A DNA stretch of 64,000 nucleotides from Hyaloraphidium curvatum SAG 235-1 (Eukaryota; Fungi; Monoblepharomycota), in contig JAIVFI010000035.1 of the NCBI GenBank assembly GCA_025558095.1, positions 62,001 to 126,000 on the forward strand, written 5' to 3'. The translations under genes were made by a program, and so were the position numbers. Shown here one piece after another: positions 40,271-64,000 of the stretch; positions within the stretch are counted from its first letter, which is position 1, and each line of letters opens with the position of its first letter. The notes below the pieces were generated by a model. That model saw only the letters and a list, made by a program, of their open reading frames with translations. It searched no databases and had not been told where the DNA came from.

Positions 40271-40585
40271 CTAGTTCAGACGATCGTAGAAGTACCAGCG
40301 TGCGAATGTCACCGCTAGACCTTGGTGAACTCCAATGAGGTAAATGAAAGCGGGATGGAGGGGAAGGAGTGGAGCAACAAGCACCAAGATGAAGGATATC
40401 CCGAGCAGGGACCATCCAATGAAGGTGTTTGGCCCCAGGTGCCCGTGTTTGCTTGTATCGCTGAAAGGCAACGCAAAGAAGAACATCAGGAACACAATGG
40501 GTGCTGCGACAATGAAGCTCACGATTGCCAGTACTACGTACACCGGGATGTTGACCCGCGTCAGGGCCACAGCTGTGGCCGACAT
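40271..40585 (-). CDS. Small multi-TM hypothetical protein
   Basis: 104 aa with 2-3 hydrophobic helices; CAAATG start context. Confidence 0.5.
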   Translation of the reverse strand: MSATAVALTRVNIPVYVVLAIVSFIVAAPIVFLMFFFALPFSDTSKHGHLGPNTFIGWSLLGISFILVLVAPLLPLHPAFIYLIGVHQGLAVTFARWYFYDRLN

Positions 40586-40721
40586 TTGATGCAGCCATCT
40601 GCAAACTTCTCCGCCTCCCTGGACTACCACCCGGATTCTCAATCGACGTCTCCGGGCACATTGACGCTTCACCGTCGGGTGCCCGCTGCTCCGACACGTT
40701 GATAGACCATCCGGGCGCCTT

Positions 40722-42035
40722 CTACCGTGGCCATATTCCGATAGCAGCATTCACCGCTTCCATTGCCACATGTACTTCGTTTTCCATGCCGCGCCACTGT
40801 CGATAGTGGGGGGGACCGCCTGCCATCTGGTGCAAAATGTGGCTTATCTCACCAAGCAAGAAGAATGCTCTCCACCGTCGCATGTCTTCCGGATCCACTG
40901 GCTCCCTCCAGTCGGAATGGAGAATGTGTCCGATCTCCCCGCGAAGGCTTTCAGCAAGGCCCTCCAGACCTTCAAAGAGGTCGGGTCCGGCGTCGCGGAA
41001 GCGCAGTTCCTCACACAAAACCCGCGCAACAGAGGGATGCATTGATGGCCTTAGCTCTGTGTCAAGACGACCAGGCACCAGTTTCCGGAGATCAACACGC
41101 CGATGCCCTAGGAGATCGATAAACGGAGCCCAGTCAAACTTTTGCAGCTTTGTTCCGTCGTCGATGTAGGCCTTTGCGACGGAAAGCCAATCCCCGTCGT
41201 TCAACTGGAGCCCCGATACGGGCACCGAAGCAAGCCCGCTTTTGAGGACTGCATGACGCACCGTCCAGCGAACGACTGCACATTGCGCGATCTCTTCCTT
41301 GAAGAACCCCAAGAGACTGCTGAGCTGGTGGTGCGACGCATTTCCCACGTCAAAGCACCTGAGGGATGGTGGAGCCACCAGAGACAGCACATCGTCCAAA
41401 GACAGCCGTTCATCGTCTTCCAAGGGATCCTCCCAAAGACGAACTTGGCAGCGCACCTCCGTGCCCGTCAATGGGTATCTTTCGAGGAAGGCCATCGATA
41501 GACGCGCCCCGGATCTGCAAGCGACGGACGCTTTTTCAAACAAGTCAGGGTCACCGGTGGAGTAGAGAAGCAACAGGTCGTGGGTGCAGACGAGACTCGT
41601 CCTTCCGGGCACTCTGTCGTCCAGCATTCCGAACCACTCGGGGACGCGCTCACGGCGAGCGCTGCACAAGGCATCTTCACGGACGCCGCTCATGATGATG
41701 TCGACGAGAAGGTTGTGAGCGAGTTCCCGGCGCACAGCGGGGAACGCAAGAACCGCAAATGCCAGGTCCCTGTTCTGAGCCTGTCGCGGCCAGTCGCCGT
41801 CGTCAATGAGTCGGGTCAACATGCGTGGTGGAGACATGAGCCAAAACAGACGAATCCCGGCGCCGGTGGGGCCGTGCCGCGCGACGAACGCCGACGCCCG
41901 TGCTCGGGTGTCGAACACGGTTCGGAGGGCCCGGCACGAGATGGACAGGGAGAAGAGGTCCCTCTCCGGGAGGTACGCCGCGATGGCGACGAACACTTCA
42001 CTGGCAAGCGACTCCATTGGGGAGCTCGCCGCCAT
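40722..42035 (-). CDS. F-box protein, paralog 1
   Basis: SLASEVFVAIAAYLPERDLFSLSISCRALR F-box. Aligns along its length with 42127-43449. Confidence 0.75.
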   Translation of the reverse strand: MAASSPMESLASEVFVAIAAYLPERDLFSLSISCRALRTVFDTRARASAFVARHGPTGAGIRLFWLMSPPRMLTRLIDDGDWPRQAQNRDLAFAVLAFPAVRRELAHNLLVDIIMSGVREDALCSARRERVPEWFGMLDDRVPGRTSLVCTHDLLLLYSTGDPDLFEKASVACRSGARLSMAFLERYPLTGTEVRCQVRLWEDPLEDDERLSLDDVLSLVAPPSLRCFDVGNASHHQLSSLLGFFKEEIAQCAVVRWTVRHAVLKSGLASVPVSGLQLNDGDWLSVAKAYIDDGTKLQKFDWAPFIDLLGHRRVDLRKLVPGRLDTELRPSMHPSVARVLCEELRFRDAGPDLFEGLEGLAESLRGEIGHILHSDWREPVDPEDMRRWRAFFLLGEISHILHQMAGGPPHYRQWRGMENEVHVAMEAVNAAIGIWPR

Positions 42036-42126
42036 CGGTTCGATGAACATCAGAATTGCAGGTGTTGTTGGGGGGACATCCGCAACTCCAGCCTCACGGT
42101 TCAACCTCCGACGGCACTCAGCAAAT

Positions 42127-43449
42127 TCAATCCAAGCCCTGCCACCGCCGCCGCCGCCCAAAGCCTCCTGGCACGTCTGCGACCCTTCCTAGTGTCTCAA
42201 ACAGCTTCAATAGGATTTCGCCGTAGAGAAAGTACCGTCGCCATTCCATCATCGCCGCTGGCTGGCGCGGCTCCTCCCAATCGTCGAATGACTTGGCAAA
42301 GTCGATGTTCGGTCGGAGCAAGGCGGCGAGGGCTTCTAGGTGCGGTGCAAGTGCTGCGGTGCCGTCCGTGCTCAGTCGGGCAAACTGGGCTTGGACAAGC
42401 GCAGGATGAGGAGCCCGTGGCGGCTGCGAGGGATGACTTGACAACATGAGGCGGAGATCTATCGGTGGCAGGGCATCGTGGGCTGCTTCCAAGAGATCCA
42501 TGAAGCTGTCCGCGTCGAAGGGGGTGTTTTCGTAGGCCGCGGCGACGAATCCGGTCATGCTGGTCTCGGCGGCGTCATGGGTTGGATTCTCCCATGCCGC
42601 CAGCTCCGCGACAAACTCTGGGCCGAGCCCACTTTCACGAATGACGCACCTCACGCGCCACCTGGTGGATGTGACGTGGCAGATCTCGTCACGGTAGTGA
42701 AAGCAGAGGTTCGCAAGCTGGGAAGACGAGCACCTGTCCAGGTCGAAACATCGAATGGATGGCGGGGCAATCAACTTTAGTACGTCCGGCAGCGGTAGCA
42801 GCGGCGGTGCTTGGTCGTCCTCGTCGTCTTCGCCCCATAGTGCAATCGGCCATTGCACAGTGCGTCCGCGGAAGGGGCGATGAGCGAGAAAGTCGAGAGA
42901 CAGCGAGGCACCGCGCTCAAGTGCGTCCCCGATGCGTTCAAACAGACTCGGGTCGCCCGTCTCGTACAGCATCAACAGATAATGGGTCGGGATGATGTCG
43001 GGAGCAGGCGCAGACAAAGTGTCGTTGAGAAGGGCCAACCACTCCGGTGCCCGCGACCGTGTTGCAGTGCAGATGGCGTCGGCTTTGCTGCCCGCGAAGG
43101 CGACGTCGACGAGTGTGTTGTGAGGCATCGCGGCGCGGACGTTCGGGCACGAAAGCACCAAGAAGGCAATGTCCCTGTTCAACCTGTCGCTGCGCCATCG
43201 GCCGCCATCAAAGCGGGGGAGGACCATCGGCGCGTCCGCAATGAGCCAGAAGAGAATGTGTCCCGCACCGGCTGTGCCGTGCCGTCCAATGAGGGCAGCG
43301 GCCCGGGCGCTTGGCGTGGAAAGTGCGGCCTGTAGACCGCGACAGGTACGCGACAGACGGCAAGCTTCCGCGACCCAGAGGTAGCTCGCAAGACGGGTGA
43401 GAATCTCATTTGGGAGCTCCGGAAGAGCCGCTGTGATTTGTTGAGGCAT
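42127..43449 (-). CDS. F-box protein, paralog 2
   Basis: LPELPNEILTRLASYL...RLSRTCRGL F-box. Shares RHG..GAG..LFWL, TH.LL.LY.TGDP.LFE and PPS.RCFD with paralog 1. Confidence 0.8.
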   Translation of the reverse strand: MPQQITAALPELPNEILTRLASYLWVAEACRLSRTCRGLQAALSTPSARAAALIGRHGTAGAGHILFWLIADAPMVLPRFDGGRWRSDRLNRDIAFLVLSCPNVRAAMPHNTLVDVAFAGSKADAICTATRSRAPEWLALLNDTLSAPAPDIIPTHYLLMLYETGDPSLFERIGDALERGASLSLDFLAHRPFRGRTVQWPIALWGEDDEDDQAPPLLPLPDVLKLIAPPSIRCFDLDRCSSSQLANLCFHYRDEICHVTSTRWRVRCVIRESGLGPEFVAELAAWENPTHDAAETSMTGFVAAAYENTPFDADSFMDLLEAAHDALPPIDLRLMLSSHPSQPPRAPHPALVQAQFARLSTDGTAALAPHLEALAALLRPNIDFAKSFDDWEEPRQPAAMMEWRRYFLYGEILLKLFETLGRVADVPGGFGRRRRWQGLD

Positions 43450-43778: not shown

Positions 43779-45254
43779 ATGACGGAAGCGATTCGTGGAG
43801 CAGACATCGATGTGGACGAGGTCCAGGAGTTTCCGATCAGGCTGGCAAAGCGCCCGTCGCAGCGTGACCGCAACCAGAAGAGCATCCGCTCGAAAGCGAG
43901 AGCCTGGGACCGGGTCGATGAATTGATTGCAGCCGGAAACAAGCGCTTTCCCGGTTTTGCGTCCCTGGACGGGCGGTTCCTGGAGTGGTTGAAAGCAAAT
44001 CCGAAAGCGAACGGTTCTGGGCACAGTCCCGTAACGCTTCTGCAGTATCACACCGTATCCGGAATCATTGGTCGTTTGATCGTAGGAAAGAAGCGCGGCA
44101 TCGCTTACGCAGAGACCTTCCTTCAACTCCCAGTGGACGATCCTTCCGTGCAAAACTTCCGGGTTTGGTTGAACCACTACACACCCGAACGCATCTGGAG
44201 GCTTGTCCAGAAACACACATCCAATTTCGCTTCCCAGAGCGCATTCGCAGTGGCTCTCCTGAAGCTGTTTACCTTTCATCGTGGCTCCTCCGATCACGCA
44301 GATGTGATGTTCTTCGCGGACAAAATCAAGGAGCTAGGGAAGATGACAGCTGTTGCAAAGCGATTGCAGCTGCCGCAGTTTGGCGCGGGGGACCTTCAAG
44401 TCGAATTTCGCACAATTCGAGACAAGGTACGGAGCTACGCGGAAAACATCCTCGCGCGTTTTGAAGCAGCACCACCTGACGTGCTTCAGAGAGGACTCCC
44501 CGAAATCCAGGCAGCTGCCATCACATCGCTTTACGTCCTGCACCCGCCTTCGCGTGCAGACTACGCATACCTTCGATTCACTCCCTCGAAAACCCACAAC
44601 TACTTTGATGGTGGGGAGAACAGTCTTGTGTTTGTTAGTTTCAAAACGGCCGCTACGTACGGCGTTGTGAGCGTCAAGATTGAGAATCCGATCGTGAGTC
44701 GACTTTTGCACTTGCTCGCTGACAAGATCCGATCGCAGAATGGGGATCGCTACGTGTTCATGTCGCGACCCGGTAAGGCTTTTTCGACTGAGGCCGGGTT
44801 TGGACAACACGTCGGCTACTGTTTCCGGCGTGTAACCGGCACGGCGCTTCGTCCTACCGCACTCCGGCGTCTCTATTTGAGCGATCACGCGAACGGCACC
44901 GTTGATCAGAACGGGGAACACCGAGTGCCTTCCATGGAGGAAAACACGTCGCTTGCACGCAACATGATGCACAGCGTTTCCATGCAGGCATCCTACCGCC
45001 GAATGCCCACTCTGGATCACATTCGGTCTACGATTCCTACCAACGACCCTGCCGTGCCCCGTGACGTTGCTTCGGCTGCAATCGAAGCTGTTGGTCGGAT
45101 GCAAGCCGTGCAAGCTGACGGGTCAAGGGAGCAGCGCCTGGCGTGGGAAAAGGCCAAGCGCGACCTGGTGCGAAAGGCCGTTGAGATTGATGAGGCGCGC
45201 GAAGCAGCTGCCAAGAGGCATCGCGAGAGACTCCAGAGGCGGTTGTCACAGTAG
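43779..45254 (+). CDS. Tyrosine recombinase/integrase of the virophage/PLV/NCLDV type
   Basis: LYVLHPPSRADY (R), FKTAATYG (K), ALRRLYLS (xxxR) and LARNMMHSVSMQASY (H, Y). N-terminal helical core-binding-like domain. Confidence 0.85.
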   Translation: MTEAIRGADIDVDEVQEFPIRLAKRPSQRDRNQKSIRSKARAWDRVDELIAAGNKRFPGFASLDGRFLEWLKANPKANGSGHSPVTLLQYHTVSGIIGRLIVGKKRGIAYAETFLQLPVDDPSVQNFRVWLNHYTPERIWRLVQKHTSNFASQSAFAVALLKLFTFHRGSSDHADVMFFADKIKELGKMTAVAKRLQLPQFGAGDLQVEFRTIRDKVRSYAENILARFEAAPPDVLQRGLPEIQAAAITSLYVLHPPSRADYAYLRFTPSKTHNYFDGGENSLVFVSFKTAATYGVVSVKIENPIVSRLLHLLADKIRSQNGDRYVFMSRPGKAFSTEAGFGQHVGYCFRRVTGTALRPTALRRLYLSDHANGTVDQNGEHRVPSMEENTSLARNMMHSVSMQASYRRMPTLDHIRSTIPTNDPAVPRDVASAAIEAVGRMQAVQADGSREQRLAWEKAKRDLVRKAVEIDEAREAAAKRHRERLQRRLSQ

Positions 45255-45728
45255 TCTCTCCGCAGAATAGATCTCCGTGAGTTCAGGATCTTCCATCATG
45301 TCACGCGCAACGACACGCAACACCGTCAGCAACCCGCGTCGCCAACTCAGTTTCCATTTGTTGGCTGGCGACGTGAGAATGTGCAAGACGGTTTCGTGAT
45401 CCTTGATCCAATCAAATGTGCGAGGAATCTCCGTCCACTGCAGAGTCGAAGCCACCCGCATCAGTCGTTTCCACGTCTTGCGCTCGGCGAGGTCCCCCGT
45501 GACGTCGCGCGACGCACGGTGGAGCCGACAGAGCAGCATCAACCTCCGACGGTAAGTCAGTTCCGTTGAATTCGACCAGACAAACTCTTTTGCTCCTGCG
45601 GCGGCAAGCAAAGTGATCGGGTGTCCCGCAATTGCCGCCTTGTCATCAGCAGTTTGTGCTGGACGGCCGAAACGTGTCGCTTGCGGTTCGACGGCTGCCA
45701 TGGATTGTGCTGCGATCTTGACGTCCAT
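45246..45728 (-). CDS. Small helical protein, family X copy 1
   Basis: WSNSTELTYRRRL..L...EIPRTFDWIKD..V..IL...L.V.A....DP.L..Y. Confidence 0.7.
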   Translation of the reverse strand: MDVKIAAQSMAAVEPQATRFGRPAQTADDKAAIAGHPITLLAAAGAKEFVWSNSTELTYRRRLMLLCRLHRASRDVTGDLAERKTWKRLMRVASTLQWTEIPRTFDWIKDHETVLHILTSPANKWKLSWRRGLLTVLRVVARDMMEDPELTEIYSAERLL

Positions 45729-45767
45729 CGGAGGATGTATTTCTGGCCCGGTAGACGGCATCAGGCG

Positions 45768-46226
45768 ATGGGTTACACCAAAGACGATTCGCTGTCGCGT
45801 GCCATCGCTAAGGCAGCAGAACAGGCCGGTTGGAGTCCTTCGTCGACCGATCTCAATCGAAAGGCCATTCTCCGTGTTGCGGCGCTCTACACCGCAACTC
45901 GCACCCTGAGAGAGGAAGGCAAGCGGGACCCCGATTGGATTCTGATTGATCGCAAGGCCCGCCGGCTCCGCGGCCCGTTCTCGACTTCCGTGCTCAGGAA
46001 ACCGCGCTTCTTCAAATGGCTGTCGAAGCGAGCACCGTGGACCGCTCCAAGGATCAGGAACGTAAGATGGGCACTGATGGCAGCCGCCTACGCCGCCTTT
46101 GGCGTGGGTGCAGACGAGGCGTTTGCCCGACGGGTGGCGGCGATCCGAAGGATTGAAAAGGTGGTCTTGACGAGTGGGAGGCGCGGGTTGACGCTGGTTC
46201 AACAGGGGGAAGAAGAGGAGGTTTGA
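45768..46226 (+). CDS. Small helical protein, family X copy 2 (most divergent)
   Basis: AIAKAAEQAGWSPSSTD....LRVAALY.A.R.LR....W.LID..ARRL. Confidence 0.65.
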   Translation: MGYTKDDSLSRAIAKAAEQAGWSPSSTDLNRKAILRVAALYTATRTLREEGKRDPDWILIDRKARRLRGPFSTSVLRKPRFFKWLSKRAPWTAPRIRNVRWALMAAAYAAFGVGADEAFARRVAAIRRIEKVVLTSGRRGLTLVQQGEEEEV

Positions 46227-46636
46227 GGCGTTGATTGGCGCCTTTGGCGGAACGCCGAATCGGTGTATTGCAGGGCTAGATGCGGATCGTCCAAAAAGAC
46301 GTCTGCGATGAGGCGAAGAACCTTGAAGAGGTTGGCTCTCCACCGGATTCTGTGCGGATCGTCGTCAGCACTCAGAATGTGGTCCAGAACATGCACGTCA
46401 CGGATCCATTGGAAGCTGGACGGGAGCTCATTCACGGGGATCATGCGGGCAAGGGCGTCGATGTCGTCAAACATCGGCGTTGAAGCGTTGCGTTGTCGGA
46501 GGGCCTGGAAGGCCGCGTACAGCTTGGCGAGGCGGAGAGTCTGGTTCTTCGTGTTGCGGTGCGTGGCCGCACTCCAGCGCAGCTCACGGGCTGCGCGATC
46601 AAGCGCCGTGTTGTAGAAGTGCGTCGCCGCGGTCAT
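46199..46636 (-). CDS. Small helical protein, family X copy 3
   Basis: RAARELRWSAAT....LRLAKLY.A...LR...IDALAR..P..ELPSSFQWIRD. Confidence 0.7.
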   Translation of the reverse strand: MTAATHFYNTALDRAARELRWSAATHRNTKNQTLRLAKLYAAFQALRQRNASTPMFDDIDALARMIPVNELPSSFQWIRDVHVLDHILSADDDPHRIRWRANLFKVLRLIADVFLDDPHLALQYTDSAFRQRRQSTPQTSSSSPC

Positions 46637-46684
46637 CGATGAGGGTTTGAACGGCAAAAACGTCTTCCTAGATCTGCCGATTCG

Positions 46685-47167
46685 TCAACCGAGGGAGTCC
46701 GGTTGGTCTGCGAAGCCCCCGATGGCAATCTGCGAGGGCTTTGCCGGAAGTGCCTGCTCTTGCTTGAGGTTCCGGGCGCTGTACTTGGATGCGAGGATCC
46801 GGTCGCCGAGGAAGAGTTCCGCAGCCATCTTCAGGGCAGAGATCGACCCGCGTTTGTACGACGGCGATCCCCCAAGCCGAGCGACGATGCCTTGAACGAC
46901 TCTCCGATCCCTCAGCCACGCAAAACTCTTGGGCAGTTCGCTTCTGGGCAGCCTTCGTGAGATGTCGTCAATCAACTCCCACGATTCGTCGTCGAGTTTG
47001 TCGGGTTCCACGGTGTCCAATCGATTCCGCAGCTTGCGAAGAGCACAGAACAGGGCTGCAATTCGCCTCAGCCTGTGCGAATAGGAGTCGGCCGACGATT
47101 TCGTCCATTGCGCCGCTTTGGCGGCTTTGCCAATGCTCTTGGCGATGAGATCCGGTTCCTTCGGCAT
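46685..47167 (-). CDS. Small helical protein, family X copy 4
   Basis: SIGKAAKAAQWTKSSADSY..RL.RIAALF...W.LIDDISRRLP..ELPKSFAWLRD. Confidence 0.7.
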   Translation of the reverse strand: MPKEPDLIAKSIGKAAKAAQWTKSSADSYSHRLRRIAALFCALRKLRNRLDTVEPDKLDDESWELIDDISRRLPRSELPKSFAWLRDRRVVQGIVARLGGSPSYKRGSISALKMAAELFLGDRILASKYSARNLKQEQALPAKPSQIAIGGFADQPDSLG

Positions 47168-47206
47168 TTTGGCTTGGCCCCGGTGACAGCGAACGGGCGA
47201 AAAAGA

Positions 47207-47605
47207 TCAACCCCACCAAAACTTCCAGAGGCATCCTCGCTTGCGGCGGACGACATGTGCTGTATCGTCGGCGGGTTCCGTATCCAGCGCCTCCAGCCGT
47301 TGTAGCTGCCGATCGATGTCTGCGAGCATTCGCGTCGTCTCCCTGTCCAAATCCTCAGCCAGTCGCAATTTGCGCCTTGCCGCATCCTCCAGCACGCGTG
47401 CGCGTTCGATCCTCAGCTCCTCGACTTCGGCGGCGGGGTTTGCGAACTCCGATGGGGGTTCAATGTTGAAGCACGATCGGAACGACGCCAGCACCGCCTC
47501 GTCGATCGGGGTCGGTGAAATCAGGCGGGTTGCCGTTCTGCGGCTCTCGTCAACAACGCGTCGGTAGATGCAGATCGGCTGGAACTCACGGAACAGTGCT
47601 GCCAT
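47207..47605 (-). CDS. Hypothetical coiled-coil protein
   Basis: ATG ORF with a charged heptad stretch. Confidence 0.5.
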   Translation of the reverse strand: MAALFREFQPICIYRRVVDESRRTATRLISPTPIDEAVLASFRSCFNIEPPSEFANPAAEVEELRIERARVLEDAARRKLRLAEDLDRETTRMLADIDRQLQRLEALDTEPADDTAHVVRRKRGCLWKFWWG

Positions 47606-47621: not shown

Positions 47622-47939
47622 TCAGTGTCGTTGGGGTGCTGCGCCGAGGAACTGTGCCAGCTTTGATCTTTTCAACCCCTCCCTCGGGTACGGCGCGGCG
47701 GAGGACAGAAGCCCATGGAGCTTTGCCCATCCCAGCAAGACCCTTTCCGCATCCAGAGCCTGTGCGCGATCGACAAAGGCTGCTCTGACAATGTGCTTCA
47801 TCTGACGTTGTGCGTAATCACGCGTCGGATCTGTGCTATATCCGACCTTTGCGAGATTCGGATTCGTTGCGTGCACTGCCAAGTACACGTAGCAGAGGCT
47901 GTCGATCCGGAAACAGGCGCCCGCGGGGATGTCGGACAT
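47622..47939 (-). CDS. GIY-YIG / T5orf172-like nuclease-domain protein
   Basis: YVYLA......LAKVGYSTDP.R....A..AE..L pattern. Confidence 0.65.
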   Translation of the reverse strand: MSDIPAGACFRIDSLCYVYLAVHATNPNLAKVGYSTDPTRDYAQRQMKHIVRAAFVDRAQALDAERVLLGWAKLHGLLSSAAPYPREGLKRSKLAQFLGAAPQRH

Positions 47940-48059: not shown

Positions 48060-48842
48060 ATGCTGCAGCTTCCGGAGCTTGATACCACAGGGATCGCGGC
48101 GATTGCAAAGGAGATCCCCTACGGCGTGTGGTTCATTTGCGGCAAACGCGGATCGGGCAAATCGGTCCTCGCCAAGTGGATTATGAGCGCACTTGCCGAG
48201 CGCTTCGGGCTCTTTGTTGCCGTTTCGTCCACGGAGGGGTTCAATCGCCACTATTCGAGCTTTCTGCCCAAGGCCTTCTGCCATTACGCATACAGCCCCG
48301 AAGCGCTTGCACGGATCGTCGATGCCCAGAGCCGCCGCGTGAAAGAGTTGGGCGTCTCCAAGGAAACCAGCCTTCTTCTGGTGCTTGATGACGTTTTGCA
48401 AGACGGTCAAGAGCTCTTCAAAGACAAGAATCTGAAGCACATCTTCATGAACGGCCGACACATTGGAATCTGTCTTCTCCTGCTTGTGCAATACATTGTC
48501 GCCGTGCCGTTGGCTCTCCGCAGCAACGTCGACATCACAATCAGCTTCGCAGACGACACATACGACGTAAGACAGCGTCTTTGGAAACTGGCCGGTGGAA
48601 GTCTGAAGTACCCTCAATTCTGCGAGTTCTTCAACCGCGCTACGGAAGGTAGAAGGGCGCTCGTCATTGTCGCGCGTGCAACAAAACAGGGAAAGATGTT
48701 TTGGGTGCTTGCCAAAGACGCCCCAAGTCTCCGCCTCGGCAGTGACTTGATGTGGTCCTTTCAGCGCCGCTGGGGCATTGACCGTCTGCCCAGGGCGGAG
48801 CAGGCTCTGTACCGCTCCAGATTCGTCGCAGTGAGCAAGTAG
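48060..48842 (+). CDS. A32-like (FtsK/HerA superfamily) viral genome-packaging ATPase
   Basis: Walker A GKRGSGKS, Walker B LLVLDD, IFMNGRHIGI.LLLLVQY and P..LRSNVD. Confidence 0.92.
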   Translation: MLQLPELDTTGIAAIAKEIPYGVWFICGKRGSGKSVLAKWIMSALAERFGLFVAVSSTEGFNRHYSSFLPKAFCHYAYSPEALARIVDAQSRRVKELGVSKETSLLLVLDDVLQDGQELFKDKNLKHIFMNGRHIGICLLLLVQYIVAVPLALRSNVDITISFADDTYDVRQRLWKLAGGSLKYPQFCEFFNRATEGRRALVIVARATKQGKMFWVLAKDAPSLRLGSDLMWSFQRRWGIDRLPRAEQALYRSRFVAVSK

Positions 48843-49853: not shown

Positions 49854-49862
49854 TGCGAGCAA

Positions 49863-50450: not shown

Positions 50451-50462
50451 GCTGACACTAGA

Positions 50463-55214: not shown

Positions 55215-55222
55215 AAAATGAT

Positions 55223-55487
55223 GGTGACTCATCGAAAGCCCGACCCCAAAACGGGGTGAGTGTGGGGTGGTCTCTGAAAAGGGGGAGCCCGAGAAAGGGC
55301 GTGGTACACCCCCGTGGTACACTGTGATACGGACTTTTGTTTTTTTCTTTTCAAACTTTACGCGTAGAGATGAAAACAGACGGGGCCGCACGTCCGTATC
55401 ACACTGTACCACGGGGGTGTACCACGCCCTTTTTCGGGCCCCCCCTTTTTGTCGGGACTTTTTTCGGGCCCGCTCCGATGAGTCACC
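55223..55487. repeat. Palindromic element copy A (nested inverted repeats)
   Basis: Outer IR GGTGACTCATCG/CGATGAGTCACC. Inner 48-bp IR 55287-55334 / 55392-55439 with 2 mismatches. Central TACGCGTA. Confidence 0.92.
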
Positions 55488-55666
55488 GACCAAAAACGAT
55501 CACCGGTTATTGCTCACCCCCCAATCAGCAGCCCTTCAAACCAAAGTCCGCCGCCTCCTGGGCCTCCTCAGAAAAGCTCATCGACCGCAGGAAGCCCGTC
55601 CATCAAAACGGTGCCCCGGGCTGAAAAAGGGGCCCAAAATCACAAGTGGTGTGGGAGGGCTGATGT

Positions 55667-55922
55667 GGTGACTCATCGAAGGAGTCCAACCCCAAACCGG
55701 GCGTGGGAGGGGGTGTCCTCTGAAAAAAGGGGGGCCCGAGAAAGGGCGTGGTACGCCCCCGTGGTACACTGTGATACGGACCTTTGTTTTTTTCTTTCCA
55801 AACTTTACGCGTAGAGATGAAAAACAGACGGGCCACGCGTCCGTATCACACTGTACCACGGGGGTGTACCACGCCCTTTTTCGCGGACCCCCTTTTTCGG
55901 GGCCGGGTCCCGATGAGTCACC
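55667..55922. repeat. Palindromic element copy B
   Basis: Diverged direct repeat of copy A with the same IR arms and centre. Confidence 0.92.
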
Positions 55923-55973
55923 AATCGATCCGATCGCCAGAAATTGTGAAGTGACTTTTCATCGTATTGGCGT

Positions 55974-58900
55974 CTACATCAGCATCCCCTCGCCAAAGTC
56001 GATCTCCTCCTGGGCCGCATCATGGTTCTCTTTCATCCTTGCCATCGCATAGACAGGCGTGCGCATCTCCCGGGTGAGTTTGTCTCTCCCTCCGTCGTCG
56101 CGCCGAGCTTCGACAAAACGAATCAATTCCAAACGGCTCGCTTCGATCCTGTCCAGCTCTGCCTGCGTGTACGTCCTGACGGGCGCCGACTTCTCTTCCC
56201 TGTTCTCTCCCGCGGCGCTACCATCGTGTCCGAACGCATATTTGAACCGATCTGGGTAGGCGTCCACCATCGTTTTGGCAATGGAAGCGATGTCAAACTC
56301 CCTGTTCTCCGATTCGGTCGCGGCCGCCACGGAGGCGTCCACCACCCAGCCCGGGAAACCATGCTTGTCCATGTCTTTGCCGTAGCGGTACTTGTCATGG
56401 CTTGCCCTGGGCCGGAATCCTCGGTAAAAGACGTTCGAAAGCCTGCCAAAAACAGATGCTTTCGACATCATCTTCTCCCCGGAGTCGGCGAGCTGAAGAG
56501 CTTTCTCGTATGGGACGCCGTCTTCAATCTTGCCCGTGAACTTGCATTGGCTGAGGATGCTCCTCGTCAAGCTTTCGCTCTTGGGGGGAGGAAAGAGCTC
56601 CTCGGTTGCCGCCAGGACGCCCCTCGGTACGGATGGCATACTGACGTCTTCACTCGCAAACTGGTCCTTGATAATCCGTGCGACGACGGCGTACCGCAAA
56701 AGTCCTTTCGCTGCCGTGCTCATGAACTCTTGATCGATTGGAAAGACGTGGTTATCCTCGTCCTCTTCGCCCGGGTTGACGTACTTGGAAAGCATGTTGA
56801 TCCCCAAGAAACGATTTCGGATTGATTCTGCTCTGGTGATGGCTGGAAGCTCCTCAGGATTGATCGCTTGGACCAACAAGGTGTTCAAGACCACGTCTTC
56901 GGGCGTCTTGTCGTAGCATCCCCTCACGGGCTTCTTGTCCCCTCCGCTGGTGATTGCTTTCACACTTCCCACGTCCCAGCGGGATCCCGACATGGCCTCT
57001 GAGCCCATGGCGCATCGCAGCTTTGCAAGACGTTTGAGCTCCGACTTCGGGCCCTCGGCATTTTGCGATTTGTTTCCTGCCGTCATCAGGATGCTTGGTT
57101 CCAGAGACCCGAACAGTGGAGACAGGGCTTCCGAAAACAGTACGATTAGCCCCGATTTGCCGTCGTTTCCGTCCCCGTAGAGAATGAAGATCTTCTTCCC
57201 TGGGTTGCCAAAGGCGGCGTGTCTGACGTAAACCAGAAAGAAGGTGCCCGTATCAGTGCGGTGCGAAAAGACGTTCCAGTAGTGGTGTTCAAACAGGAAC
57301 TGCAGATATTCGCTTTCGAAGAGCTCCGGGACGTACGGGATGTCAAGCGTCGTCCGAATGAGGTCCTTCGGGACTGCCTTGCGGATCGTCTTTGCGGCAC
57401 CGTCGGCAACATACCCGTTCTTGAAGGGGATTATCCCGCGGTTGCTGTCGAACTTGGATTCGGACTTGTACGTCATATTCTCACTCAGGATCTTGAGTGC
57501 TGCAACACGCGATTGGCTGCGTCCAATCGCGGTGAGGAGCTTGTTGATGTTCGGTTGCAACTTCTTTGCGAATCGACCGTGCTTTTCGTTGGCGTCCCTG
57601 ATCGCCTGTTCCAGCCTGTCCAAGGGTTCGAACGCCATGCTGATGGCGCCTTCTCCGTTCACAGTCCACATGCCGTCTCGGCATCCGTACCACGTGGCTT
57701 TTTCGTCATCTGGTCCTCGAATGAACAAAAGATCGCCGATTTCCGAGTCAGGCATCCCCCTACGCTTGCTCAGGTGTATCATGTCGGCGATGATTTTGTC
57801 CGTCACGTGCGTGAGCGCACTGAGTATCAATCGCCCCCCTTCGGGGCTTGAGAATTCTTCTACGGCCTCTGCAATGATCTTGGCAGCTTCCCCGGGAGTT
57901 TTTGCGATGGAATCGCCCGTCATTCCGTCATCATCGGCCCAGTCACTGTCGACCGTGTCAGCATCGTCGTCGCCATTTGCGGTGAAGCGAACGACCTTTC
58001 CGCTGCTTCCTTCGACGAAGAACAGCTCCTTCCTGAACCTAATGATCCCTGCACCGGTCGAACATTTGAAGAACAAAAATGGCCCGTCCTCGGATCTGCA
58101 GCTTTTGACGTGCACCCTCGCTTCGTCCACTCCCAGGATACCGGCATCGGATGCCAACTGCACCACAATGCGGATGGACTCGGGTGAGGCCGGTGCAATG
58201 TCCGGCGGCAACGAAGCGACGCCTACCAACTTATCATGGATGGTGCGCGTGTCGCGGCTCCGAATCAAACTCCGGTTCAGCTTCACGCCCTTTCCGTCGA
58301 TGAGATCGAATCCGGTCCTCTTCGAGACCAACTTCGCACCGGGGTAGGTGGTGCTCATCAAAGAGACGGTCACGATCGACTCGCACTGGCCCCCCCACTG
58401 TCGCTTGACGCCCGTGACAACCAGGGGCCCGTTGATCAAAGACATCACTTGCCCGCGAACGGAATTCACGGCGTTCTTGAGGCAAAGTACCTCCTCCTCG
58501 GCAACGCCCCATGCTGGCCAGTCCGAATCCGAAACTCCGTCAACCGACATAGGGTCGCCGTCGCCGCCGTCGTATACTTCGTCGTCGATTCCCACGTCCA
58601 GGACGTGAACTCCCCCATGCCCCCTGCCGATCCGATCCGTTCGCAATGGCGGCGTCGCGCGCGCGCCCTCTCCGCGCCCGGACGCGCCGTTGGCTCCTGT
58701 CCCGGGGTGCGACGACGCGGCCCTGCGCTTGACCACGGGCTCCGGCGACGACCCCGGTGTCTCGCATCCCGCAGCACCAGCGGAGAGATCCCGACCCGCC
58801 GCGGCCCAAATCTGGTCCAACCTGGCCCGGAACTCAGCGTTCCTCGCACCGACGCTACCAATCTCCTCGCCGTCCTCAAACACGACAAACTTGTCATTCA

Positions 58901-61556
58901 TGACCCGGATCAGCGTCTGGGACGAGCTCGCCCCTGGTTCGACCTCACGGCTCAGATGGACCAAGAAAGCACCGTCAGTCAGCACGCGGCGTCGCACAGC
59001 GCGGACCGAAGGCGACGTCGGCTCATTCAACGGGGAGCCGGTGACGTGGGTGTATGCCATCCGGGCAGCGGCAATGGCTTCTTCAAAGACCTCGGCATCG
59101 GGTGTGACCTCGTACTCGCCCTCTCTGCTGGCTGCGTCGTTCCATCGCTCTTGCTCGTCCCTCATGTGCCGTTGACCGACAACTTGCGTCGGGGTGTCCT
59201 GTGCTTGCGTCGGGTTGGTAAGAGTGATGTATATCCCCCGAATTGCGCCCGAAGTGCGAGCGCGGCCCAGTTCCTCCTTCCCGTCCCTGAGTGTCATGTT
59301 TTGCGGACCGATGGAAACACGCAATCCGCCGGTCAATGGGACCAGGATGTACGGGTGGTCACCAGGGCAGAAGCGGATCGTAGTGTAGTCGACGGGGCCG
59401 ACCTTCCGCGTGCCGAACAGTGCCCGCTCAACGGTATCCGCAACAATCCGCTGCTGCTCCGTGCTCATGCTCTGATTCGTCGGAAAGATGCGCGTGAAGA
59501 GAGCTGTCGGCACTGTCATCCAAAGCGACTTTGTCCGGCACAACTCCGCTTCGCACCAATACCGAGCACGGCCTCCGTCATAGACACTGATGATGCGGCG
59601 GTTGGTTTGCCTGTCCTTGTCGTCACCGTGAAGCCACGACCACTCCTCGCCTTTGTGAAAGCATTCGCGATCGCGAAGACGTATGTTCACTTTGCGATTT
59701 CCGGGTTCCCTGTTCTCAGTGGTCTTCGCCAAAATCAGCGGAAACTGAGCGAGCGGGTTCTCGTCCAAATCTCCGACCCCGCGCCCGCAACGGTAGTAGT
59801 CAAGCAGGTCCTCGCACGCGCGTGCCCGATCCTCCGTGAGCGTCCCATACGCGCCGGATGCGTTCCACTTCGGAATGTATCCATTTTCGACTCCCCTGTT
59901 GTGCATCCGCTCAGCACGTTCCGCGCCGTAGTTCGATTCCAGCTCCTCCTGCGTCGGACGAATCATCAACGCCATGATCCGGTCCACCGTCGCTTCCAAT
60001 ACCTCACCGGTCTCCAGCGACATGGGAAGGTAAAACGTCCCACTGCGCTTCCTCGACAGCGGCAGCCGCTTGTTCGCAAATTCGACGCGAAACACGTCCG
60101 TGTCGATGGAAGCAAAGCGTCCCATCTCGTCGTCGGCGAGCAACTCCTTCGCACGCTCCGCAATCTTGTGCATTGCCCTGAGGCTCGCAATTCCGTTCGG
60201 CGCGACGATGTGCAGCTTCCCCGGCTCCACGGCGTTGAACTCCGCAGCAAGCCCGGCGGTGAACTCGTCCGCAATGCCACTGCCCTCCGATTCGCCCAGA
60301 ACGGCAACGCAGAAATCTCTGCACGCCTGTTTGAGCACTCGAACCACGGCACTGGCTAGCTTCAAGCGCCCCGGCGCATCCGCAAAGGCACTGTAGTCGC
60401 CCCCGTCGTCGCGCCTGTCCACCTCTGCAAAGACGCGCGCGTACTTGAGCCCGCGCGTCAGTTCGGAGAAGCAAAGGACCTTGGAGTCCGGGTGGCTGCG
60501 ATGTTCGTCGATCATGGCCTGCGCAAACGTCCGCAGGGCCGCGCGGTCGTTCGGCACCCTGATCTTGCCGGGGATGCCGGCACCTGGGCCTGCGAGAAGC
60601 AGAGTGTGCGTGCTCTGAGCGCTGTCCTTGACGGCATGCTGCCAGACGAACTGGGCGAGAGCGCTTCGCTGCCTCCCAAACGGGACAGGCACGTCGCGGC
60701 TGCCGCTGCCGCTCCCGGCGCCGGCACCACCGGCCGCGGCGGTAGAGCCCTGTCCCTTGCCGGATTTGGCGACCTTCGTTTGCACGGCGGGGTGTCGCCC
60801 GAGGATGACGTCCACGAGTGCGTCGGGCATGCGCGCCGGGAGGCGGTCAAAGAGCGACGCCCCGGGATCGAACCGGTAGTGGGCCACGCTGCCGTCCGGG
60901 AGACGGTAGCTCGTCGGCGGCGCGTAGATGATGCCCCCTGAACCGCGCGTGTCGATGTCCAGCACCTTGCCGTCGATGGTGAATGCTTTGGCCGTAAGGG
61001 TCTCTCCTGCAAGCCTTTCGTCGTTTGCAAAATATAGGTGCCGCCCTTTTCGCGTCGTCACCGTCACGGTGGCGAGGCTCTCGACGCTGGGGATGCCGAC
61101 GGTGCGAAGGAGCAAGTCCAGATCAGCCAGATTGTCTCCGTCAATCACGAATATCCCACCCGGTTGCCCCGTGACGAGGCAGAGCCCGTTGTGGTGCGGC
61201 TTGACCTCGCAAACCGTACGATACCGCTGCTCATCCGTCGGGTGGACACAGTTCTTGACGATTTGGCCCTTCGCGTCGGTGTAAGACGTCATGTGGAGTG
61301 GGAAGACCCGGATCCCCATGGCCCGAAACGCGGAGGCCGCCGAAGCCACCGTGAGCTCTCCGGATGGGCGCGGCACAAGCACCAGGGAGGAGGCGCATGT
61401 CGTGTCCGTTTCGTCCCGCCGCGGAGTCGTTTCGATTTCCTCCTCGGCAGCCACTGACTGGGCCTTCAGCACGGGCGAACCCGGTGGCGAAGGCGTCAGC
61501 GACGCCGCGAAGGACGGGGCATCGGATTCGTCGTCGCTAGCGTTCGTCCAATCCAT
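55974..61556 (-). CDS. Giant primase-helicase: Prim-Pol + AEP-like + Cys/His region + D5-like SF3 helicase (~1860 aa)
   Basis: GLCLVTG..FVIDGD, TTRKGRHLYF and IDTRGSGGIIYAPPT (Prim-Pol). VFAEVD..LHIV..IDTDVF..RLPLSRK (AEP-like). IPFKNG, YGDGNDGKS (Walker A), GSE and AIN (SF3). Confidence 0.88.
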   Translation of the reverse strand: MDWTNASDDESDAPSFAASLTPSPPGSPVLKAQSVAAEEEIETTPRRDETDTTCASSLVLVPRPSGELTVASAASAFRAMGIRVFPLHMTSYTDAKGQIVKNCVHPTDEQRYRTVCEVKPHHNGLCLVTGQPGGIFVIDGDNLADLDLLLRTVGIPSVESLATVTVTTRKGRHLYFANDERLAGETLTAKAFTIDGKVLDIDTRGSGGIIYAPPTSYRLPDGSVAHYRFDPGASLFDRLPARMPDALVDVILGRHPAVQTKVAKSGKGQGSTAAAGGAGAGSGSGSRDVPVPFGRQRSALAQFVWQHAVKDSAQSTHTLLLAGPGAGIPGKIRVPNDRAALRTFAQAMIDEHRSHPDSKVLCFSELTRGLKYARVFAEVDRRDDGGDYSAFADAPGRLKLASAVVRVLKQACRDFCVAVLGESEGSGIADEFTAGLAAEFNAVEPGKLHIVAPNGIASLRAMHKIAERAKELLADDEMGRFASIDTDVFRVEFANKRLPLSRKRSGTFYLPMSLETGEVLEATVDRIMALMIRPTQEELESNYGAERAERMHNRGVENGYIPKWNASGAYGTLTEDRARACEDLLDYYRCGRGVGDLDENPLAQFPLILAKTTENREPGNRKVNIRLRDRECFHKGEEWSWLHGDDKDRQTNRRIISVYDGGRARYWCEAELCRTKSLWMTVPTALFTRIFPTNQSMSTEQQRIVADTVERALFGTRKVGPVDYTTIRFCPGDHPYILVPLTGGLRVSIGPQNMTLRDGKEELGRARTSGAIRGIYITLTNPTQAQDTPTQVVGQRHMRDEQERWNDAASREGEYEVTPDAEVFEEAIAAARMAYTHVTGSPLNEPTSPSVRAVRRRVLTDGAFLVHLSREVEPGASSSQTLIRVMNDKFVVFEDGEEIGSVGARNAEFRARLDQIWAAAGRDLSAGAAGCETPGSSPEPVVKRRAASSHPGTGANGASGRGEGARATPPLRTDRIGRGHGGVHVLDVGIDDEVYDGGDGDPMSVDGVSDSDWPAWGVAEEEVLCLKNAVNSVRGQVMSLINGPLVVTGVKRQWGGQCESIVTVSLMSTTYPGAKLVSKRTGFDLIDGKGVKLNRSLIRSRDTRTIHDKLVGVASLPPDIAPASPESIRIVVQLASDAGILGVDEARVHVKSCRSEDGPFLFFKCSTGAGIIRFRKELFFVEGSSGKVVRFTANGDDDADTVDSDWADDDGMTGDSIAKTPGEAAKIIAEAVEEFSSPEGGRLILSALTHVTDKIIADMIHLSKRRGMPDSEIGDLLFIRGPDDEKATWYGCRDGMWTVNGEGAISMAFEPLDRLEQAIRDANEKHGRFAKKLQPNINKLLTAIGRSQSRVAALKILSENMTYKSESKFDSNRGIIPFKNGYVADGAAKTIRKAVPKDLIRTTLDIPYVPELFESEYLQFLFEHHYWNVFSHRTDTGTFFLVYVRHAAFGNPGKKIFILYGDGNDGKSGLIVLFSEALSPLFGSLEPSILMTAGNKSQNAEGPKSELKRLAKLRCAMGSEAMSGSRWDVGSVKAITSGGDKKPVRGCYDKTPEDVVLNTLLVQAINPEELPAITRAESIRNRFLGINMLSKYVNPGEEDEDNHVFPIDQEFMSTAAKGLLRYAVVARIIKDQFASEDVSMPSVPRGVLAATEELFPPPKSESLTRSILSQCKFTGKIEDGVPYEKALQLADSGEKMMSKASVFGRLSNVFYRGFRPRASHDKYRYGKDMDKHGFPGWVVDASVAAATESENREFDIASIAKTMVDAYPDRFKYAFGHDGSAAGENREEKSAPVRTYTQAELDRIEASRLELIRFVEARRDDGGRDKLTREMRTPVYAMARMKENHDAAQEEIDFGEGMLM

Positions 61557-61734
61557 TTTGGATCCTATGTGAGTGAGCAAAAAAACGGGACCGTTTTTGC
61601 GTGTGGGGAACAGTCGAGGATTTAAAAATCCTTCGCCGACCGGCGGACCAAACGCGGATGTTCGACGGCGTTTTTTTTCTGTGGCCCCATCAGAAGCAAC
61701 CGCGTCCCGACACACAAAATCGTAGATCGCCACC

Positions 61735-62070
61735 ATGCTGAGCACTCAACTCCCCCGTCGCGCCGCCGATTTCAAATCCGCAAAGGGCCGAAGCGCCGCG
61801 GCGCTTTTCGACGAAATCGTGAAGCGACTGGACATCAGCCCGGACGCAGCGACGTTCATCCACCCGGAAGAGGTGCAAACGCAGCTGCGTTGCCTCATTC
61901 CATGGGATGCGGACCGGTACATTAGAAGCCAGAAGCTGATGATGCAAGTCATGTGGGCCATGGATCGTCGATACGGCGACACTCACACAGTCACTACCGT
62001 GTTCATGCGAGGAGTGCCCGGTCCCGTTGTCGTCACTGCGCCCATCAGGCCTCCACCGGAGGCTGCCTGA
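61735..62070 (+). CDS. Small protein, family Y copy 1
   Basis: LFDEIVKRLDI...W..D.Y..S..LM.Q......YGDTH.V...V.AP, shared with 63098-63505. Confidence 0.7.
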   Translation: MLSTQLPRRAADFKSAKGRSAAALFDEIVKRLDISPDAATFIHPEEVQTQLRCLIPWDADRYIRSQKLMMQVMWAMDRRYGDTHTVTTVFMRGVPGPVVVTAPIRPPPEAA

Positions 62071-62244
62071 GACTCTCAATGGAGTTTGGACCGCTGTTGT
62101 AACCTGCTGTCAGGAATCGACGCTTTTGTGCAACAATGCAATGACCCGTTGCTGTCCGCGCCCAAACTGCCGCGGCCGTCGCGGTAATCAACGGTCGGAA
62201 GGAGGACGTGATCGATGTCGTGAGACTCGTCAGCGTTTTTGCGA

Positions 62245-62976
62245 TCAAAACCTGCGCACCCCCGCTTTGCCGCCTGCGAGCGCTACAACCAAGCCATCGG
62301 GCATCCTCGCCGGCACCGTCTCCCACGGACTCGCACCCTCGTCCCACGTCCACACAACCTCCTCGCCGCCCGCTCCCACGTATCCCGCGGGAGGCACTAC
62401 CACCCAACCGCCAGCATTCCTCCACTGCACCTCCACCACTTCGCCATCCACCTTGTACCTTCTCGCCGAAGCCTGCATTTTCGCAAGACGCAGATCGTAC
62501 TCAAACAGCACCACCCGCCCCTGCGGCCCCGACGCAGTCACCGTCGCCAGACCCCGCACGCCGCCAATCCCGCACTTGGCGAGCAGCGTCTCCAGTCCGC
62601 CTTTGTCGTCGCCGCACTCCAACGCCACGACGCCTCCAACGGCGCCCGTCGCAAGCCCCACGGCGTTGTGCTGCGGCAGCACCCGGTGCTCCGCCTCGGG
62701 CTTGTGCCAATTCAGCGGGAGAGACACCCTCTCCGCCCCGGTGCGCGCATTCCAACCGATGCACACGGGGAAGGCCATGTAGCCCAGTTCCCTGTACGCG
62801 CGAACGGCGTCGGCGACGGTGAGCTGTCCTTCCGACTTGGTGCCGATCGTAAAGCGCCTCTGCACCGGCCCCTTCGCACGATCCGCCGCCGGCAACGCAC
62901 TCTCCAGCGCCTGCTCGCCGTCGACGACAGTGTCCGACACGGGCCTGAGTCCTTCGGGGGTTGCCATCAACGACAT
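62245..62976 (-). CDS. Stand-alone, probably inactive Prim-Pol paralog
   Basis: Aligns with the N-terminus of the large primase (LTVA.A..A.R..G...FP, N..GL.TG..GG, LATVT, PP..Y, P.RMPD.LV). DxD is replaced by ECG and the His by Val. Confidence 0.75.
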   Translation of the reverse strand: MSLMATPEGLRPVSDTVVDGEQALESALPAADRAKGPVQRRFTIGTKSEGQLTVADAVRAYRELGYMAFPVCIGWNARTGAERVSLPLNWHKPEAEHRVLPQHNAVGLATGAVGGVVALECGDDKGGLETLLAKCGIGGVRGLATVTASGPQGRVVLFEYDLRLAKMQASARRYKVDGEVVEVQWRNAGGWVVVPPAGYVGAGGEEVVWTWDEGASPWETVPARMPDGLVVALAGGKAGVRRF

Positions 62977-63097
62977 TTGAACGGAGCTGCGAGGATTCGA
63001 CTTGCGTCCAACAGACGCGCACCCCGTCCATTGGCCACAATCTGTTTTCGCGGCGACCACCCCAGTAGGTGGTGACCACCGGTGCAGATCAATCGCC

Positions 63098-63505
63098 ATG
63101 CACGCCGCAGAGCCACCGTCCACGCCCATCTGCGGCACCGACGCCGCCGACATCACCGACGCGACGAGCGCCTCATCCGCGCTGACTCGCCCGCAAAGGC
63201 GCAGGCGGAACGCCCACCTCCTTTTTGAGACCATCGTCCGGAATCTGGACGTCAGAGACGATGACGTGCTCCTCGTCACCCGATCGGTGGTTCTTGACCA
63301 CATCCGACGTCTCGCTCGCTGGGAGGTCGACAAATACGCCAAATCGGCTGTCCTCATGAAACAGCTCCAGACCGCCGCTGCCCTCATGTACGGAGACACA
63401 CACAGCGTCACCTTGATGAAAGTGAACGGACAAAGCGGCAGTTTGGTCTTGGTCGCGCCTTTGAACGCTGTGCGCGCTGCCGCGACAGTTGAAGCGAGCG
63501 CGTGA
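63098..63505 (+). CDS. Small protein, family Y copy 2
   Basis: Paralog of 61735-62070. Confidence 0.7.
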   Translation: MHAAEPPSTPICGTDAADITDATSASSALTRPQRRRRNAHLLFETIVRNLDVRDDDVLLVTRSVVLDHIRRLARWEVDKYAKSAVLMKQLQTAAALMYGDTHSVTLMKVNGQSGSLVLVAPLNAVRAAATVEASA

Positions 63506-63646
63506 TCAACCGGGCAGCACGCGCCCAACGGCGACGAACGACGTCCAACAGCGCCAACTGCGCTTGTCGCGGGCGACAATGCCTCGTCGCGGCCAGGGCC
63601 TCCATCATTTTCGTTGCATCGTGGATCAACGTGGATTGACGAAAGG

Positions 63647-64000
63647 ATGGGTGCTGCGGTGAGCACTCAGATTTCGGAGACGACAAGCGAGATCCTGACC
63701 AACATCCTGATTCAAAACAGCTCAGAATGCTCTGCTCTTTCGGAACAGCGTGCCCGGATTGAGCTCAAAGCAAAGGGCCCGATCATTTTACCAGGGGGTG
63801 CAAGGATCTCTCAAGACGCCAATGTGAGCCTCCAGTGCGTGTTAGAGTCGACAAACGACGCAAAGATCAGATCGCAACTGGAGTCCAAGTTGCGACAGGC
63901 GGTGAAATCAGAGCTTGAAGGGCTCAACCTCTTCCAAGTCAGTGTTTCCACCAACATTTCGAAGCAGATCGCCCGGGTTGCATCGACGATAGACCTGAAG
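63647..64000 (+). CDS. N-myristoylated virion membrane protein (poxvirus L1R / iridovirus lipid membrane protein-like), runs off window
   Basis: Hand translation: MGAAVSTQISETTSEILTNILIQNSSECS...ISQDANVSLQCV... It has the MGxxxS myristoylation motif and spaced Cys. Not in the ORF track. Confidence 0.75.
   Translation, partial: MGAAVSTQISETTSEILTNILIQNSSECSALSEQRARIELKAKGPIILPGGARISQDANVSLQCVLESTNDAKIRSQLESKLRQAVKSELEGLNLFQVSVSTNISKQIARVASTIDLK

Follow-up and report, generated by a model that had tools for sequence, protein, structure and literature searches.

A nucleocytovirus-like segment carrying a tyrosine recombinase gene in the genome of the fungus Hyaloraphidium curvatum

We analysed a 64,000-nt stretch of the genome of the monoblepharid fungus Hyaloraphidium curvatum SAG 235-1 (assembly GCA_025558095.1, contig JAIVFI010000035.1, positions 62,001 to 126,000 of the forward strand; hereafter the window, in whose coordinates all positions are given), the right-hand part of which, from 40271 onwards, is filled with closely spaced open reading frames (ORFs) that include genes of viral type. 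A first-pass annotation made from the sequence alone had described this region as densely packed with mostly intact ORFs—among them genes for an A32 packaging ATPase, a D5 primase-helicase, a myristoylated membrane protein beginning with MGAAVS, a Sel1-repeat protein and a tyrosine recombinase. All of these genes are present; 87% of the sequence is coding, and the 22 listed frames are free of internal stops. Its F-box and T5orf172 calls proved weak, the former falling under the Pfam cut-off and the latter reaching an E-value of 0.18 only. The genes that carry our argument are, from left to right, the recombinase (43779–45254, + strand; 491 aa), the A32 ATPase (48060–48842, +; 260 aa), the primase-helicase (55974–61736, −; 1,920 aa) and the MGAAVS gene (63647–>64000, +), which runs off the window after its first 118 aa.

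The A32 protein matches Pox_A32 above the Pfam cut-off (E 8.6e-12), and its best ATPase matches are of giant-virus type. Besides a copy in the host itself, 12 homologs were found at E ≤ 1e-10, with identities of 29–31%, and identity did not exceed 34% among the best 80 of 585 IMG/VR matches; no window ORF other than A32 found a match within these 80 A32 loci. The nearest named relative is a Tribonema protein (about 30%), whose cluster mate is named FirrV-1-A12. In a midpoint-rooted FastTree phylogeny (92 sequences, 260 columns), the two host copies form a long branch (1.58) adjoining a protein from a 41,699-nt contig; the tree draws on IMG/VR rows picked by giant-virus-like patterns and contains neither named family references nor an ATPase of Polinton-like viruses (PLVs). 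One IMG/VR contig with a deep-branching A32 (L061, IMGVR_UViG_3300042113_000487) is 60 kb long and GC-rich (0.57), and carries an ORF about 5 kb from A32 that we take to be capsid-like.

The primase-helicase is open in the DNA over its whole length and combines a Prim-Pol domain (E 2.8e-10), an AEP domain with a zinc finger, a D5_N domain (E 3.5e-4) and an SF3 helicase. Its C-terminus matches a P4-family primase (E 5e-10), and its middle domain resembles AEP_C962R/Herpes_UL52 clusters (scores of 0.91–0.94), six of the seven listed rows being mostly Nucleocytoviricota. A homolog search with D5 and Prim-Pol returned no related loci and no PDB sequence match. A local duplication (61735–63505) follows, in which two small paralogous ORFs (61735–62070 and 63098–63505, both +; 37% identical) flank a stand-alone second Prim-Pol domain (62245–62976, −; 35% identical to the Prim-Pol of the primase-helicase).

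The MGAAVS gene by itself matched the L1R_F9L family below the Pfam cut-off (E 0.0018). A two-motif pattern derived from it retrieved 86 stretches in IMG/VR, which gave 29 distinct in-frame proteins; 24 of these were retained as one family and five were discarded as unrelated. All five family members that were scanned exceeded the L1R_F9L cut-off, the fragment aligns without gaps with L1R_F9L members over 103 residues, and its residues 7–88, which lie outside the search motifs, outscored each of the 1,997 scored shuffles. These relatives are presumably iridovirus-like. A homolog search with the fragment yielded none among 290 longer candidates, none by protein in IMG/VR and none in PDB. We regard the predicted protein as confirmed, on sequence grounds, as an L1/F9 envelope protein, a family that is conserved in most nucleocytoviricots according to the accessible part of a recent report (10.64898/2026.08.29.747986). 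The features of Nucleocytoviricota found here therefore comprise A32, a D5-type AEP fused to an SF3 helicase, and L1/F9 (first 118 aa only)—as predicted proteins, three independent nucleocytovirus hallmarks within 16 kb. With A32 at or below 34% identity outside the host and on a long branch, the earlier proposal of an endogenous, largely intact nucleocytovirus-like segment that appears to lack a close relative is supported.

Turning to the recombinase, another ATG lies upstream of its start, at 43662, and the window protein itself has no Pfam match; its assignment draws on a profile, conserved residues and a structure model. A full HMMER search found 56 relatives; 54 of these (leaving out two that were long and repetitive) were combined with the window protein into a profile, which matches XerH, XerA and integrases in PDB. 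Phage_integrase is matched by 12 of the 55 aligned family members. The catalytic set reads R259, K289, T360-x-x-R363, H398 and Y406, with R259, K289, R363 and Y406 present in 52–54 of the 55 rows; H398 was assigned by reading the alignment, and most family members have N, T or S in place of the first His of the usual HxxR. The alignment-based model (pLDDT 87; a model made without alignment reached 51 and was not used for searching) superposes on both domains of Cre and XerA (Z 13–15 over ~270–290 residues; root-mean-square deviation 4–6 for Cre), and structure searches rank Cre/Xer first. Ten of the 14 structural matches at E ≤ 0.001 are named giant-virus or giant-virus-like, one is a virophage and three are unnamed, the best viral ones coming from Aureococcus, Tetraselmis, Pyramimonas, Heterosigma, Hoko-, Harvfo- and Hyperionviruses and the one virophage. 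Because both groups occur among the matches, the modelled fold appears to belong to a family common to giant viruses and virophages, and not, as had been proposed, to a type typical of virophages and PLVs. A protelomerase identity is not favoured: TelA ranked 20 in one structure search and lay outside the top 50 by VIA; no telomere resolvase family was found among the window ORFs.

Starships and Cryptons are fungal tyrosine-recombinase transposons, and the region resembles them in that a tyrosine recombinase stands at the left edge of what would be a large mobile region in a fungus. However, neither the recombinase nor its aligned relatives matched the DUF3435 captain (Starship; 0 of 55) or Crypton families, which leaves a Starship assignment without a basis, and the cargo here consists of viral core genes. 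Three further paralogs (64%, 39% partial and 29%) reside on H. curvatum contigs of 589,908, 818,743 and 855,321 nt; together with the second copy described below, they add support for repeated integration. Environmental recombinases P0017, P0019 and P0071, on short contigs of 1.7–4 kb, group loosely with the Hyaloraphidium ones, and related elements likely exist in uncultured hosts; a locus search with P0017, P0026 and P0019 returned no loci. Directly beside the recombinase, four small paralogous ORFs (45246–47167; 171, 163, 145 and 160 aa) match one another in BLAST at E 1e-4 to 2e-13. Their look-alikes in the Atlas are unnamed clusters, most commonly Preplasmiviricota, plus two integrase N-terminal SAM clusters, a weak lead by which they are possibly stand-alone integrase N-terminal-like DNA-binding domains. 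That they are detached N-terminal domains of this recombinase was unsupported by hidden Markov model, HHalign and BLAST comparisons against it.

Transcription was read from a single run (X1), the sole RNA evidence, which is tentatively listed as RNA and is treated as such here on account of its joints; its contigs drop rare forms, so that unspliced RNA may exist, and show neither level nor stage, and neither copy number nor expression was derived from their depth. Between 44.5 and 61.2 kb, eight short GT/GC–AG joints of 50–73 nt have canonical ends on the minus strand, and one further joint becomes canonical after a one-base shift of the cut. Two are antisense to the recombinase (44515–44570 and 44653–44715), and four fall in the primase-helicase (57946–57995, 58158–58226, about 59948–60007 and 61087–61159). 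A 3,385-nt contig with 0 differences from the window lacks the first two of these four; the 714-aa helicase frame that this form leaves, from an ATG at 58237, could be due to chance. The remaining two joints, found on different contigs, disrupt the frame at an earlier point, and one of them removes a Prim-Pol motif; splicing likewise breaks the frames of the Sel1 gene and of a 132-aa ORF (47538–47589). The L1/F9 gene is covered by a contig with 0 differences that continues 2,087 nt past the window end. The viral region is therefore transcribed, with host-type splicing, in this run, and the description of its genes as intronless holds for the DNA frames but not for the RNA. Host splicing, together with the antisense RNA, may keep the replication and excision genes non-productive in the state that was sampled. 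Sequence pieces of the region occur in runs of two studies, and viral and host genes are alike in GC at third codon positions (GC3) and in dinucleotide use.

A second copy is indicated by the public H. curvatum proteins. The closest relatives of the A32, the 285-aa ORF and the recombinase all come from this species (98%, 98% and 64%), and a 615,044-nt contig encodes, under consecutive accessions, both P0003 (the A32 copy, with four differences among its first 169 aa) and P0085 (97.9% identity with the 285-aa ORF); the proteins of the window itself lie on a contig of 551,499 nt. The public gene model P0003 lacks ~20 residues at window positions 48567–48626 (GT-rich and AG-bounded) and has a changed C-terminus; annotation pipelines may split viral ORFs with introns in this way, hiding them from searches. 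Run X1 contains both exact contigs and variant contigs, with many variants setting in at 46050, and the A32 variants agree with P0003 at all three covered amino-acid sites. Among 40 listed differences (of 415), 38 are coding, and 26 of these 38 are synonymous, against 25–29% expected (p ≤ 6e-7), with dN/dS between copies at about 0.15–0.19; of 12 listed indels (of 32), seven are intergenic, three in-frame and two frameshifts. Since divergence is mostly synonymous, the copies appear to have diverged mostly as functional sequence. In the flanks, the RNA contigs that cover the Mutator-type gene (4,562 nt) and the F-box pair (2,974 nt) are free of differences; plain heterozygosity, or alleles, is on this account an unlikely source of the two forms, and the copies would instead represent separate insertions of related, functional viruses. 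Moreover, one RNA-run contig joins 53309 to 55177, skipping the Sel1 block (53310–55176), and thus likely stems from another copy without that block.

Between the convergent 281-aa ORF (54369–55214, +) and the primase-helicase lie two imperfect palindromic units (55222–55490 and 55667–55923) of 260–270 nt, 85% identical to each other, with 58-nt arms that are 95% complementary (z −20.7), and both centred on the same 8-bp palindrome (55359 and 55806). The heptamer TGACTCA/TGAGTCA, which we take to resemble an AP-1/Gcn4 site, stands at both ends of each unit (55225, 55479, 55669 and 55914), so that four of its eight sites in the window are unit ends. The exact palindrome pattern had 0 matches in IMG/VR and no Rfam family; nor was any Rfam family found in 39–64 kb, and by eye no target-site duplication was evident. 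The units are candidates for an origin, a resolution or telomere site, or a miniature transposon.

The remaining genes are mostly ORFans. A 132-aa ORF (47207–47605, −), spliced as above in part of the RNA, and a 105-aa ORF that is T5orf172-like at best (47622–47939, −) precede A32, and five ORFans follow it (48954–53515; 299, 195, 285, 135 and 543 aa), the 135-aa one with an N-terminal hydrophobic segment and the 543-aa one with a coiled-coil; the Sel1-repeat gene (53725–54288, −; E 6e-20) comes next. To the left of the recombinase lie a 159-aa ORF with a hydrophobic segment (40271–40750, −; no Pfam family above the cut-off), which could be host or viral, and two tandem F-box-like paralogs (40722–43449, −; 442 and 440 aa, 35% identical), which share one RNA-run contig without any joint and the first of which forms a singleton cluster. 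This F-box block is probably flank or accessory, may be host, and is at most a putative member of the multi-copy element.

Further left, the window is a GC-rich piece of eukaryotic chromosome (GC 0.48–0.71). Its first 12 kb hold host-like genes, and 12–35 kb hold retroelement- and Helitron-like frames, labelled from their translations without a family scan. These include a copia-like polyprotein frame (14745–19676, −; 1,643 aa) that is uninterrupted and apparently intact, two LINE-like reverse transcriptases, one broken (12700–14100) and one intact (27195–30440, −; 1,081 aa) and nested in a Helitron-like region (25.8–32.3 kb), and a degenerate gag-like repeat (32490–35058), whose contigs in run X1 are very deep and rich in variants; in all three runs the contigs come to a sharp loose end at 35058, which likely marks a repeat boundary. 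The left neighbour of the viral region is a Mutator-type gene (35748–39796, −; Pfam MULE E 1e-3), covered by a single exact RNA-run contig in which one joint merges two frames into 1,332 aa; its protein presumably bears a SWIM-like Cys/His motif. Terminal inverted repeats of Mutator type were sought around 35–44 kb and not found, and the gene is therefore possibly domesticated.

An abrupt switch at 40271, as first described, is not borne out by composition or RNA: GC is 0.59–0.65 on both sides, the CpG shift sits near 35 kb, and an exact RNA-run contig (35754–40364) spans the point. Read from the left, the recombinase is the first gene that is clearly viral, and the left end of the element therefore likely lies near 43.5 kb. 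CpG observed/expected falls to 0.44–0.65, with an excess of TpG/CpA, in the transposon DNA at 12001–14000 and 26001–34000, a methylation-deamination signature that neither the viral part (1.1–1.25, no depletion) nor the host genes carry.

To place the segment, we compared it with known systems, as far as the accessible parts of the cited papers describe them. The phaeovirus proviruses of Ectocarpus share with it a nucleocytovirus in a nuclear chromosome, a tyrosine recombinase that here, too, probably lies near the end, and an internal palindrome, at which long reads fold back and which is proposed as the linearisation site; phaeovirus recombinases lie near the provirus ends (PMC13236599), and the probable proximity of ours to the left end is taken as support on this comparison. 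The nearest named A32 relative, with its cluster mate FirrV-1-A12, is a further link. By contrast, the host here is a fungus, the recombinase has 491 aa against 860 aa, L1/F9 is present, a Feldmannia virus protein ranks only 21st among the recombinase structural matches, and neither a telomere resolvase gene nor an att junction was found in the window. The Mycodnaviridae are likewise nucleocytoviruses integrated in a zoosporic fungus, and the same report mentions capsid genes in two Monoblephidomycota genomes (PMC13533422). However, they are described with a polinton-like integrase (five isolates only), 9–34-kb inverted terminal repeats and near-silent transcription, whereas the region here encodes a tyrosine recombinase, is present in at least two copies and is covered by RNA contigs. 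Hyaloraphidium may be one of those two Monoblephidomycota, and this locus may be among the 17 genomes of that paper; the fungus's name does not occur in the four of ten supplements of that paper that are searchable, and four host terms gave no match in the supplements of PMC10120064.

Punuivirus of Chlamydomonas is likewise an endogenous giant virus that is latent and transcribed and contains spliceosomal introns, and it is not depleted of CpG-type silencing targets, a property seen here only as the lack of CpG depletion; its introns belong to 61 gene models, and a DDE integrase is thought to integrate it (PMC13692296). The spliced stretches here are, unlike those introns, open coding sequence, and in most cases the frame is lost once they are removed. 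Mriyaviruses and the PLV-like groups Zoravirus/VC134 have in common with the segment a giant-virus-type A32, an AEP-SF3 helicase, a tyrosine recombinase (VC134) and, so far, the lack of PolB (PMC11253617; 10.64898/2026.06.19.733378), but L1/F9 is present here, and HUH, Mriya48 and VLTF2/3 were undetected in the window, with no HUH or VLTF2/3 Pfam match among its ORFs. Mriyaviricetes are defined by an HUH endonuclease, Mriya48, VLTF2/3 and genomes of 35–45 kb, and are described without integration genes (PMC11253617), whereas an integrase-type gene is present in the window. PLVs and virophages are typified by a PLV-type capsid and ATPase, genomes of 15–40 kb and no L1/F9 envelope gene; the segment here has L1/F9, and its best ATPase matches are of giant-virus type. 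Literature searches, with most subscription papers outside their coverage, found no description of this element or of a tyrosine-recombinase nucleocytovirus in fungi.

The window holds a young, multi-copy, transcribed endogenous nucleocytovirus segment that is at most putatively complete and active. The reading we favour, at somewhat better than even chances, is that it is the left part of an endogenous nucleocytovirus with its own tyrosine recombinase, likely integrated more than once; its best placement is alongside phaeoviruses in mechanism and apart from the described Mycodnaviridae in integrase type. A nucleocytovirus would have reached the nucleus, its circular genome would have recombined at a short host site through its own recombinase, and the integrated virus would have been inherited by the host, with related viruses integrating more than once. 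The recombinase would belong to the same unit and drive integration and excision, as in phaeoviruses, and the palindromes may serve as an origin or resolution site; host polymerase and spliceosome would yield truncated or antisense RNA from the replication and excision genes, with a possible role in latency. Several observations weigh against this reading. A scan of the 23 ORFs starting at 40271 gave no capsid, PolB, VLTF3 or RNA polymerase; searches of the window for attachment sites, terminal repeats or borders found none, nor does an att site or repeat mark the left end near 43.5 kb; and no listed RNA-run contig bridges 43471–43710, from the F-box block to the recombinase. The recombinase paralogs sit on contigs other than that of the A32 copy (615,044 nt), and a 1,165-nt RNA piece over the 3′ half of the recombinase shows only two differences, for which reasons the second copy may lack a recombinase. 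Selection between the copies may predate integration, its analysis covering 40 of 415 differences and 12 of 32 indels, with two of the 12 being frameshifts, and the spliced primase-helicase form ends at residue 1,225, before the helicase.

Some of these points would suit a young but dead-end relic, a passively duplicated nucleocytovirus fragment that is read through and spliced while decaying. Such a fragment could explain the frame-breaking splicing of D5, Sel1 and the 132-aa ORF, the gene-content difference between copies (the 53309–55177 join), the two frameshifting variant indels, the lack of capsid and PolB in the window and the local duplications; yet the window copy has no stop in 22 frames, the 1,920-aa ORF included, its catalytic residues are intact, CpG is not depleted and the copies differ in a pattern of purifying selection, and we consider the relic unlikely, if a serious contender. 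The locus might also be composite, with a PLV- or virophage-derived recombinase cassette (43.7–47.2 kb) beside, or captured by, a nucleocytovirus segment, and with the recombinase mobilising a unit smaller than the complete virus. The presence of one virophage in the top structural matches, the mostly Preplasmiviricota look-alike clusters of the small ORFs (score 0.96, with phylum given for four members each) and the recombinase paralogs on contigs where no A32 copy was found all fit such a mosaic. Second-copy variants of the kind seen in the A32 block occur, however, in three of the four small ORFs too, and the remaining one overlaps the stop codon of the recombinase, which argues for a cassette that runs on into the viral block; neither a second capsid or ATPase nor a repeat border turned up, and we hold both versions to be improbable.

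A small element of 20–45 kb from the PLV–nucleocytovirus continuum, similar to Mriyavirus, Zoravirus or VC134, seems to us more improbable again. The multiple copies, the 41,699-nt contig of the A32 tree sister and the lack of PolB in 20 kb would agree with it, as would, in the accessible text of 10.64898/2026.06.19.733378, VC134 members that often encode a tyrosine recombinase and Zoravirus ATPases at ~30% to giant viruses; against this, L1/F9 is outside the mriyavirus conserved genes and the PLV gene key given there and in PMC11253617, no HUH family match occurs among window ORFs, Sel1 and the many ORFans would suit a larger genome, and the A32 pairing joins two long branches. The least probable account, and very much so, is that a free virus sequenced alongside the fungus was wrongly joined to a fungal contig in the assembly: in its favour, the F-box block and the recombinase are not spanned by any listed contig, but host-type spliceosomal joints lie inside viral genes, the copies sit on contigs of 551 and 615 kb, GC3 and dinucleotide use are host-like, and pieces recur in runs of two studies. 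Building on the favoured reading of an endogenous nucleocytovirus with its own recombinase, we tentatively raise a bolder possibility, itself doubtful—an undescribed nucleocytovirus family of monoblepharid fungi with an L1/F9 envelope, a double-primase D5 and a PLV-shared recombinase cassette, still excising and re-integrating, and with latency through the host spliceosome and antisense RNA.

It is only recently that fungi were firmly shown to have large DNA viruses, and the one lineage described so far is almost silent and has an integrase of polinton-like type. If a second lineage, as yet unplaced, uses a tyrosine recombinase, integration of the phaeovirus kind would reach into the fungi, in a host that can be cultured and in which the two young copies allow the ends and the target site to be mapped directly. 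Finally, the frame-breaking splicing of open viral genes would offer a testable view of a host that is starting to intronise or mute a provirus.

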